This document shows positions 48,473 through 49,905 of a stretch of 64,000 nucleotides of DNA, one piece after another. The position numbers and the translations under genes are program-made. The DNA is from a virus: UHGV virus genome UHGV-1366990. One strand, 5' to 3'. Every line of letters starts with the position of its first letter. Position 1 is the first letter of the stretch. A model generated the notes under the pieces. The model saw nothing but the letters and a program-made list of their open reading frames with translations. It was not told the origin of the DNA and made no database searches.

Positions 48473-48684
48473 AAATTATTGTGTACCAACCAAGGACTGT
48501 CAACCCTTTATCCCGTTTGTGTATGATCAGTTCATGCATGCCTCTTTGTGCTGCCTCACGGCATGCGCTTCTGTGGGTCTTTGGCTTGCACCATAGCCTC
48601 GCCACAGGCGTTTATTTTTCCAGGGCTTTCCACTTACAAGTCTTAACCAGACCGGGATACGGGCTTGTAAGATCGGGTTGGACA

Positions 48685-48762
48685 CAACTTTGATAGCTCT
48701 GGTACTAAAGATCCCGCGTCACCCATAGACATGGTTTATAAAATCCAGAGCTATCAAAGTTG
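48685..48762. repeat. 18-bp perfect inverted repeat with 42-nt spacer
   Basis: CAACTTTGATAGCTCTGG at 48685-48702 and its exact reverse complement at 48745-48762. Confidence 0.8.
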
Positions 48763-48783
48763 CACCCAATGCTCTCTCAAGTT

Positions 48784-48909
48784 CACAAATCGAAGTGCCC
48801 TGACTCAACAGTATGGCCCAATATGCTGTTATCGTCCACCGGATTGGCCGCCCAATTTGTAGATCAACCTTTGGGTTTAAGATAAATTGTCAAGACACTT
48901 CGATTTGTG
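48784..48909. repeat. 14-bp perfect inverted repeat with 98-nt spacer
   Basis: CACAAATCGAAGTG at 48784-48797 and its reverse complement CACTTCGATTTGTG at 48896-48909. Confidence 0.8.
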
Positions 48910-49905
48910 TGCCCTTCACCTGCCAGGGATCAGGGCTGATGGCAAGACTTCGCTCACATCTTTCAAGATACTCGTGAGAATATCCTCAAAGATGTGGAGC
49001 CGTTTTTAGGAGTCGAACCCAAATGCTTGGCCAGCGCTGACCTTACATCCCATCTGACTTAGGCAACCCACCTCTGCTTACTCAGGAGCTTATCCCCTTT
49101 GGACAGTCAGATATAACGGCATTGTCGACGGGAGATTATTAATCACACCCTCCCGTCTATTTTAGTGCGCCGAATTTGGTGATGAGGAATCGGAAGACCT
49201 CACTGACTTATAGGCTGTTACGCCGCCATCAGAACTTCGGAATCATTAGCAGTTATTTGCTTGGTCAGTTTCTAAAAACCCGCAAAGTCACTCACAACGA
49301 AAACGAAAACCTGTTTGAGCACAAGACGCCATGTCCTGGGTTCACATCGAAGTGTTTGTCTAATGCCCAAACAGCTTTTCGCTTCAGTGGGTTAACTATA
49401 CTTTGTAACCCGTTATTGATAAAACCTTTTATTTTTGTTGGCGAGGGTATCACCATCGATTTACCGGAACTTACGCATCCGGCCTCGCCTGTTGGTGATC
49501 CTTCGAATCCGGGAAGATCAGTAGGAACTATGAATCAAGTTAATTCAACCAACAGGAACCTTGTTGCCCTTTGACGCAACATTATGAACCCTCTATGGAA
49601 GACTCATAATGTTGTCGGCGTGATGGAGATTAGCGCCCCCGACCTCCCCTTGTGTTGGTGTCGACTTGCCAACGGGGTGCTCTCTATTTCTGAGCTAATC
49701 ACGCTACAACAGGGAGTTTCGTTCTCCGACGGTCAAGTGCGTCCACTGACACCATGCAAGGTGGATATTGACTTATGAAGCCGGAGTCCTCGTCCTAGGA
49801 CTGTGCTTGGCCTCAGCCTTTACACCGCTGGTCGCCCGACTCTTTACACCATAAAATTTACTATACTACAGCCAAGCTAATTTGAAAAGTCCTCTCCTCT
49901 TTGTG

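Follow-up and report, generated by a model that had tools for sequence, protein, structure and literature searches.

A minus-strand RNA of about 210 nt beside the tRNA genes of an Ackermannviridae phage, and the phage RNA family to which comparative evidence assigns it

Arrays of transfer RNA (tRNA) genes in phages are under active study, both as a supply of codons and as an escape from tRNA-cutting host defences. In phage T4, rnaC and rnaD mature together with the tRNAs. In gut phages, ribozymes similar to that of hepatitis delta virus (HDV-like theta ribozymes) are reported to free the 3′ end of the upstream tRNA. Processing stems cut by RNase III, which needs about two helical turns of duplex, occur in the ribosomal RNA (rRNA) operon and in phage T7 early RNA. 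Both T4 RNAs, rnaC (species 1) and rnaD (species 2), are small and stable, lie in the tRNA cluster on the tRNA strand and abut a tRNA (NC_000866 annotation). ROOL and GOLLD, phage-encoded and highly structured RNA-only cages of about 600–800 nt or longer, are 'often near tRNA islands' (PMC12286853). A preprint describes STnc100 as prophage-encoded (bioRxiv 10.64898/2026.05.13.724894). A catalogue drawn from IMG/VR holds unnamed candidate structured RNAs recognised by covariation and reports tRNA-like and other phage motifs (PMC10690425). Described here is a region of viral DNA on a stretch of 64,000 nucleotides (UHGV virus genome UHGV-1366990; the whole stretch is called the window). It adjoins a tRNA-Met gene and is predicted to encode, on the minus strand, a structured RNA of about 210 nt, module A, which comparative analysis assigns to a widespread phage RNA family.

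Module A resembles ROOL and GOLLD as a phage-encoded, highly structured RNA with no protein partner identified. It differs from them in fold, sequence and size, the members of its family being 144–239 nt in length, and the ROOL and GOLLD models of Rfam match no member of the family. With rnaC and rnaD it shares small size, location in a tRNA cluster, the tRNA strand and abutment on a tRNA; rnaC carries a tRNA-like T arm, whereas module A is without one. Two covariance models were used. R1 was built from alignment A1, which comprises 29 distinct homologues of 48478–48690 from five genera of Ackermannviridae, read on the minus strand. R2 was built from 18 distant members only, none of them of the Kuttervirus type. 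Homology to rnaC or rnaD was rejected: over rnaC and rnaD R1 with filters off gives no more than 0.8 bits, and R2 has no match in the T4 locus at E ≤ 1.

None of the 4227 models of Rfam 15 matches the window's copy or any distant copy, either at gathering or at permissive thresholds (E ≤ 1 to 10). The scans took in the window tract, its close relatives and 18 distant loci, and gave only tRNAs, one transfer-messenger RNA (tmRNA), STnc100 in a relative and sub-threshold microRNA (miRNA) hairpins. Module A and domain I3, a long stem-loop upstream of it, are without an Rfam match at E ≤ 10. Hairpin I1, placed between the two, gives sub-threshold matches to miRNA precursors only (about 29 bits versus 55–100). 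Neither ARAGORN nor the Rfam models detect tRNA or tmRNA features in 48477–48915. Likenesses noticed by eye, to RNase P CR-I/CR-V (GGAAAGYCC..GG), to tmRNA (AAUAGUC, CAAACCC, GUGGAAGCC), to the hammerhead core (UGAG) and to tRNA T- and D-loops, are set aside as coincidence, because none of the motifs persists throughout the family and the Rfam models in question return no match. No description of the element was found in literature searches that covered transcription and non-coding RNA in Ackermannviridae, RNAs of tRNA arrays and the loop sequence itself. The family is apparently unclassified; it could already stand as an anonymous candidate in the IMG/VR catalogue, with which it was compared by description only.

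A preliminary description of the region reported four inverted repeats, and all four are present where it placed them, both in the sequence and in the output of a repeat finder:

48536–48542 / 48560–48566, no strand: 7-bp stem, GCATGCC / GGCATGC; found by the repeat finder, not conserved.
48633–48640 / 48664–48671: 8-bp stem, CTTACAAG / CTTGTAAG; found by the repeat finder.
48685–48702 / 48745–48762: 18-bp perfect stem, extending to 25 nt with 88% complementarity (48678–48702 / 48745–48769).
48784–48797 / 48896–48909: 14-bp perfect stem, extending to 21 nt with 90% complementarity (48784–48804 / 48889–48909).

Chance occurrences of an 18-mer arm, even with 3 mismatches, are expected at 0.04 in the window. 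Each stem arm is single-copy there, and a multi-copy element resembling a miniature inverted-repeat transposable element is ruled out. The four stems do not make up a single element: the 8-bp stem is part of the ~210-nt RNA, and the two long stems are its lineage-specific neighbours. The 7-bp stem occurs only in the window and a few close relatives, its 3′ arm being GGCAACGC in most relatives, and it competes with the conserved hairpin P5, which has a GNRA tetraloop, and with hairpin P6. The 524 nt of 48473–48996 fold on the minus strand at −195 kcal/mol, versus −150 ± 6.4 in 100 dinucleotide shuffles (z = −7.1); the plus-strand fold has z = −6.4 against dinucleotide shuffles.

Selection on the fold is recorded in A1. 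RNAalifold yields 52 pairs in 9 helices, and pairing is standard in 99.4% of sequence-by-pair cells. Both sides change in 17 pairs versus 10.6 ± 1.6 in shuffles, none of 500 of which reach 17; slid partners give 0–4. The non-Watson–Crick cells comprise 79 G·U and 6 A·C, and the 79 would be C·A mismatches if the plus strand were read. The P5 tetraloop is GUGA, GUAA, GCAA or GCGA in the relatives, that is, GNRA every time on the minus strand. Nearly all wobbles being G·U on the minus strand, the structure appears to be selected as RNA in the tRNA direction and not as DNA. By these comparative measures, three of the four stems are shown to be selected as RNA of the minus strand, on which the tRNAs also lie. 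The structured RNA proposed in the preliminary description is thus borne out by compensatory changes in three stems, by the minus-strand G·U wobbles and by a GNRA tetraloop kept through four variants. Conservation of structure in relatives is seen for the 8-bp, 18-bp and 14-bp stems and not for the 7-bp stem. The same description had called for an Rfam scan and a covariation analysis across related phages; the former returned no family at threshold over the stems, and the latter was positive for the three stems. Its suggestion of an intron-like element finds no counterpart, group I and group II models giving no match at E ≤ 10 in the region and none at E ≤ 0.1 in relatives.

On the minus strand the order from 5′ to 3′ is I3 (48909–48784), a deletion junction (48765/48764), I1 (48769–48678), module A (48690–48477) and tRNA-Met (48472–48396). 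Module A and its 3′ neighbour have the following parts:

48477–48690, minus: module A, multi-helix RNA of ~210 nt, delimited by model R2 and alignment A1.
48676–48686, minus: 5′ strand of the closing helix P0/P1, UGUG.CCAACC, pairing with 48482–48491; double changes in 4 of 10 pairs.
48482–48491, minus: 3′ strand of the closing helix P0/P1, GGUUGG.ACA, ending 9 nt before tRNA-Met.
48630–48675, minus: helix P2, containing the 8-bp stem 48633–48640 / 48664–48671.
48640–48664, minus: hyper-conserved 25-nt internal loop at the tip of P2, GCCCGUAUCCCGGUCUGGUUAAGAC, with the pattern GCCCGWATCCCNNTNTGGTYAAGAC.
48610–48632, minus: 23-nt single strand UGGAAAGCCCUGGAAAAAUAAAC; unchanged in all 29 Ackermannviridae sequences, though not across the wider family.
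48621–48624, minus: 5′ strand of the long-range helix Px, CCUG, pairing with CGGG at 48512–48515.
48512–48515, minus: 3′ strand of Px, CGGG, pairing with CCUG at 48621–48624.
48566–48610, minus: arm P3/P4, an expansion arm not present in short-form family members.
48553–48562, minus: hairpin P5, GCC-GUGA-GGC, with a GNRA tetraloop; retained in Aeromonas and distant members.
48520–48538, minus: hairpin P6, GCAUGA-ACUGA-UCAUAC; the closing pair covaries (UA:18 / CG:11).
48492–48507, minus: hairpin P7, whose loop is the TTGACA −35 box in the window's lineage and GGUGGAAAGCC in the wider family.
48475–48503, minus: sigma-70-like promoter match, TTGACA-17-AATAAT, 11 of 12 consensus positions; shares sequence with P7 and the 3′ end, a short way upstream of tRNA-Met.
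48396–48472, minus: tRNA-Met (CAU), called by ARAGORN and Rfam, directly 3′ of the structured RNA.

The asymmetric 25-nt loop of P2 is almost invariant; its consensus is GCCCGWAUCCCNNUNUGGUYAAGAC, with which the window's copy agrees. The stem that carries it is variable, with compensatory changes in 4 of 10 pairs within Ackermannviridae, and is wholly replaced in the Aeromonas phage and in distant contigs, the internal loop being retained. Helix Px encloses arm P3/P4 and hairpins P5 and P6. It is invariant within Ackermannviridae; distant members show at least 8 different complementary versions, readable directly from the sequences and anchored by the conserved flanks AAUAGU and CAAAC. Double changes occur in 3 of 8 pairs of P3 and in 3 of 4 pairs of P4, with G·U on the minus strand only. 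One C·A mismatch interrupts hairpin P6 in the window and in the relative closest to it. The basal pairs of I1 share nucleotides with the 5′ strand of P0/P1, so that the two are mutually exclusive; the substitutions observed fit both. The promoter is a consensus match only, and its −35 box is not conserved in Taipeivirus, Miltonvirus or Tedavirus, which makes the promoter match at most a feature of the lineage. No intrinsic terminator (GC-rich hairpin with U-run) was found on the minus strand in a scan of 47300–50300. A T-run at 48610–48620 follows the P3 hairpin on the plus strand only, and the wobble asymmetry counts against a plus-strand reading.

Searches with the two models and with the loop extend module A to a family. 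R1 finds one copy per genome and reaches a very divergent copy in Aeromonas phage phiA8-29 (35.6 bits), located between tRNA-Asn and tRNA-Ser, in which the P2 stem is entirely different and the internal loop nearly unchanged. A scan of IMG/VR with the loop pattern GCCCGWATCCCNNTNTGGTYAAGAC, for which well below 1 chance match is expected in 10^11 bases by our own arithmetic, gives 60 loci, about 40 of them from unrelated contigs of 13–358 kb and 36–67% GC; R1 matches all 40 new loci, and the covariance models bear out every locus found with the pattern. In 35 distinct distant sequences, aligned by fitting to the model (alignment A5, a procedure which favours the structure), 93% of cells are paired versus 56% in shuffles and 28–40% with slid partners, and double changes occur in 49 of 52 pairs. 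The top mutual-information column pairs all lie within P1, P2, Px and P7; no extra pseudoknot emerges from the same scan. Applied to the 64-kb window, R2 recovers 48477–48690 on the minus strand (95 bits, E~1e-20, model positions 1–158) as its sole strong match. With R2 the Ackermannviridae copies of Aeromonas and Vibrio score 73 and 62 bits, and the model converts every 'hairpin-only' match of R1 to full length, 144–239 nt. Full-length copies are found in Klebsiella phage FKP3 (Stephanstirmvirinae), between tRNA-Asn and tRNA-Thr, in a Gamaleyavirus (Schitoviridae), in Acinetobacter phage EAb13 and in Ackermannviridae phages of Vibrio and Aeromonas. On this comparative evidence module A is shown to be a member of a widespread phage RNA family spanning several phage families. 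Single-sequence folding recovers about half of the pairs in P1, P2 and P7.

Host origin receives no support: 5,426 E. coli genomes contain no match, and a scan of 185,579 species genomes returned only a 526-bp stray contig. A metagenome scan with a 22-mer gave just two contigs, of the Ackermannviridae type. Two weak R2 matches were also recorded, at 47621–47780 of the window (minus; 15.5 bits, E 0.18), upstream of tRNA-Ser, and at 905–1046 of locus L027 (20.3 bits, E 0.012), upstream of tRNA-Gln; judged by their scores and positions, these may be a decayed second copy of the family.

The genomic setting was compared in 41 representative loci, of which 29 have tRNAs in the examined DNA. All 142 tRNAs across these loci lie on the strand of the RNA. 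In 12 loci a tRNA stands within 20 nt of one RNA end, and in three at both ends. The start of the RNA falls −4 to +1 nt from a tRNA 3′ end in 9 loci, and in two (L102, L089) the RNA occupies the entire spacer between two tRNAs. Most phage tRNA arrays are without the RNA; where present, it occurs once per array. In tRNA-less loci the neighbours include helicase, DNA polymerase A, ThyX, primase-polymerase, ligase and QueC genes. A conserved protein partner was considered and rejected, these loci being flanked by assorted genes of replication and nucleotide metabolism. Two further features of tRNA-bearing loci are recorded. A viral contig of 358 kb (L094) carries a genuine tmRNA (167 bits) and a family copy within 1.5 kb of each other (8025–8381, 9720–9919); 13 tRNAs share their strand. 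tRNAs with a CUA anticodon (ARAGORN label 'Pyl', amber suppressor-like) lie near the RNA at 774–853 of L120 (EAb13) and at 9301–9375 of L097, an FKP3-like contig.

Upstream of module A the window has the two long stems and, between them, a deletion:

48678–48769, minus: hairpin I1, 18-bp stem, 25 bp with wobble extension, with a 42-nt apical part.
48718–48727, minus: apical I1 motif UAUGGGUGAC, conserved in three otherwise different loop versions.
48784–48909, minus: domain I3, 21-bp stem (14-bp stem plus 7 pairs) enclosing 84 nt; folding z = −5.6.
48764–48765, no strand: junction of a ~385-nt deletion, with the microhomology CA(A/C)CCAA(A)TG at its ends.

Double changes affect 9 of the 25 pairs of I1, with 46 G·U versus 3 A·C cells, and its loop is exchanged wholesale in some relatives, the stem being kept. 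In Serratia phages a tRNA-like 3′ end (T arm and CCA) occupies the position that I1 takes in the window. The I3 stem exists in two sequence types with compensatory changes at 4–5 positions, and the window's two plus-strand C·A mismatches in it are G·U on the minus strand. About 385 extra nt separate I1 and I3 in every relative examined, and no one-piece match across the junction of the window exists among 50,697 phage records; the two are adjacent in the window because the DNA between them was deleted in this phage. A homologue of STnc100 / PasD (RF02076) in the tRNA tract of Klebsiella phage P01 (L005 1773–1987; 53.6 bits versus a threshold of 47) lies in the DNA deleted from the window. It is missing from the window and unrelated to module A, I1 and I3.

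In duplex length, and in flanking or enclosing discrete RNA modules, I1 and I3 are similar to the RNase III processing stems of the rRNA operon and of T7 early RNA. RNase III substrates have about 20 bp or more of nearly uninterrupted duplex, a length reached by I1 (18 perfect, 25 bp) and by I3 (21 bp including minus-strand G·U). Unlike a plain processing stem, I1 keeps its apical motif UAUGGGUGAC, which processing does not need. An RNase III-processed precursor, one of the suggestions of the preliminary description, is on these lengths plausible for the two long stems, about 21–25 bp. I1 and I3 are probably Ackermannviridae-specific accessory stem-loops, upstream of module A on the same transcript.

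The interpretation favoured here, and considered probable, is that the region is transcribed along with the tRNA genes of the phage, on the minus strand, into a structured non-coding RNA, excised as a stable molecule that acts in trans. We infer the nucleases, the stability of the product and the action in trans. The RNA would be released from the tRNA-cluster precursor by host tRNA-processing nucleases. RNase P would fix its 3′ end by cutting the 5′ end of the tRNA that follows, which here is tRNA-Met at a distance of 9 nt. Its 5′ end would be set in other phages by 3′ processing of the upstream tRNA, and in the window's lineage by an RNase III-type cleavage in I1, standing in that tRNA's place. 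The closing helix would then shield both ends and leave a stable RNA. The invariant loop would be the working surface; its target in trans would be a conserved factor of the host or the phage, most likely with a link to tRNA or translation. A stronger proposal, and a doubtful one, is a new functional class of phage RNA, in which the 25-nt loop engages a universally conserved host machine and works together with the tRNA arrays; this cooperation would be the very reason why phages of several families carry the RNA. Its particular versions are likewise doubtful when taken jointly: a decoy or inhibitor against tRNA-targeting defence nucleases, a small ribozyme that trims tRNA ends, or an RNA-only assembly of the ROOL/GOLLD kind.

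Several observations weigh against excision of a stable, trans-acting RNA. tRNAs are missing from the examined DNA of 12 of the 41 loci, where replication genes are the neighbours, and tRNA-linked processing therefore cannot be the sole route. Single-sequence folding recovers Px in 15% and the inner CC/GG pair in 4% of cases, and both rest on covariation in model-fitted alignments. Competition between the base of I1 and P0/P1 makes the mature fold dependent on a guessed order of processing. The promoter match lies in the 3′ end of the RNA, and part of the element could serve at the DNA level as a promoter of tRNA-Met. The C·A mismatch in P6, the loss of ~385 nt nearby and the lost core of a tRNA-Tyr gene are all found in one tract, which may be decaying in the window's genome. 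No transcriptome paper for these phages was found in the literature.

The most serious rival, judged unlikely, is a cis-acting spacer or leader of the tRNA precursor, that is, a scaffold which aids or insulates tRNA maturation and is degraded after cleavage. Such a role would suit an element that is always on the tRNA strand and often flush with tRNA ends, and long stems that resemble processing stems. A spacer needs far less constraint, however, than is seen in a 25-nt loop near-unchanged across phage families and from 36 to 67% GC; the tRNA-less loci speak against it as well, and most phage tRNA arrays manage without the RNA, which comes once per array. A self-cleaving or catalytic RNA that cuts at its own 5′ edge and frees the 3′ end of the upstream tRNA, in the manner of the theta ribozymes, is improbable. 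The nine loci with the RNA start at a tRNA 3′ end fit it, and a conserved core of internal loop and junction strands is a ribozyme-like pattern; against this stand the failure of every Rfam ribozyme family to match even at permissive thresholds, the mutual-information scan with no pseudoknot, and the window and many other loci, which have no tRNA immediately upstream.

Very improbable is a function of the stems in DNA, as a replication origin, packaging signal or recombination hotspot of cruciform-forming inverted repeats, a possibility raised in the preliminary description. Mosaic breakpoints at hairpin edges (48693–48700, 48769–48771, 48911), private deletion ends beside I1, a cumulative GC skew minimum near 49–50 kb and the replication genes that adjoin the RNA in tRNA-less loci would agree with it. 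The turn in GC skew is explained by a switch of gene orientation at ~50.7–51.0 kb. Cruciforms are strand-symmetric, yet G·U dominates on the minus strand (79 versus 6 in A1, 46 versus 3 in I1), and the GNRA loop and the asymmetric loop make sense only as minus-strand RNA; the asymmetry of wobbles indicates that the stems are selected in RNA. Decayed tRNA genes, with the hairpins as functionless remnants, are hardly credible as an explanation: the truncated tRNA-Tyr and several tRNA-like pieces of the window and the variable tRNA content between relatives suggest it, but decay would not keep 17 covarying pairs or a fold common to several phage families, and 48477–48915 is free of tRNA features. 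Least credible of all is a region encoding small proteins. Open reading frames (ORFs) of 41–70 aa exist, and pipelines annotate small 'hypothetical proteins' over the homologous DNA in some relatives; every frame is nevertheless disrupted by single-base indels between close relatives, none has a PHROG family match, and substitutions track base pairing, not codons. The claim of the preliminary description that the region has no ORF accordingly holds in substance, the only ORFs being of 70 aa or less.

Among phage RNAs linked to tRNA islands, the RNA would take its place beside ROOL, GOLLD and T4 rnaC/rnaD. Riding on the arrays of Ackermannviridae, Stephanstirmvirinae, Schitoviridae and many uncultured phages, it may be an unrecognised player in the contest over tRNAs or in tRNA maturation. 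Unlike ROOL and GOLLD, it is small enough, at about 150–210 nt, for straightforward genetics, probing and structure work. Its carriers include phages that are well studied and easy to grow: CBA120, Vi01, Det7 and FKP3-type Klebsiella phages. Annotation pipelines leave such DNA blank or fill it with spurious small ORFs.

The phage of the window is a member of the family Ackermannviridae, Kuttervirus-like. A 2.8-kb tract around the region matches Enterobacter phage fGh-Ecl02, Escherichia phages PC3 and A221, and hundreds of Kuttervirus, Agtrevirus, Taipeivirus and Limestonevirus genomes. The region sits inside an ORF-poor tract of 2.6 kb, about 47470–49900, close to the upstream end of a long minus-strand gene block; in this tract lie the minus-strand genes for tRNA-Ser, tRNA-Asn and tRNA-Met (ARAGORN). 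The tRNA content differs among the window's relatives, and the tract is a mosaic among them with its breakpoints at the edges of structural modules. The tRNA-Tyr remnant, at 47848–47891 (minus), has lost the D and anticodon arms in comparison with fGh-Ecl02 and Ag3; acceptor stem, T arm and some of the variable region survive, and ARAGORN makes no call.

Other structured elements of the tract are as follows. A conserved element of ~103 nt with four hairpins, at 48290–48392 (minus), ends in CCCCGCCA and adjoins tRNA-Met on the 3′ side; in Dickeya phages it comes immediately after module A. At 48997–49124 (minus) is a cloverleaf-like RNA of 124 nt with the acceptor stem GCCGUU/AACGGC, two expanded arms, a T arm and a ...CUCCA end. 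It is 95–97% identical in Kuttervirus phages with flanks only ~80% identical and receives no tRNA call from ARAGORN or Rfam. Its build recalls T4 rnaC, to which the 124-nt RNA (48997–49120) is closer in resemblance than module A. Immediately 3′ of it is a near-perfect 19-bp hairpin with a 4-nt loop (48955–48996; z = −7.2), within which relatives have insertions of ~100 nt. An inverted repeat with 27-nt arms (49301–49327 / 49358–49384) is located in 49218–49384; the segment has a weak match to the Rfam permuted tmRNA (22 bits versus a threshold of 47), and a distant contig (L116 152–382) reaches 36 bits.

An AT-rich direct repeat of 24 nt is present in three copies, at 48250–48273, 49412–49435 and 50093–50116. 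The latter two coincide with minus-strand sigma-70-like promoter matches; none is called at 48250–48273. The promoter-associated repeats suggest several separate small transcription units in the tract. An ORF of 54 aa at 49906–50070 (minus) has a strongly hydrophobic N-terminal half (MFYMMLLLILLIGITCSLLGL...) and is annotated in relatives as a hypothetical protein of 48 aa. In some Kuttervirus phages (CBA120, L006 2065–2478, and relatives) genes of HNH homing endonucleases are inserted between module A and tRNA-Met; homing endonucleases also occur in the tRNA clusters of T4 and of Aeromonas phage phiA8-29.

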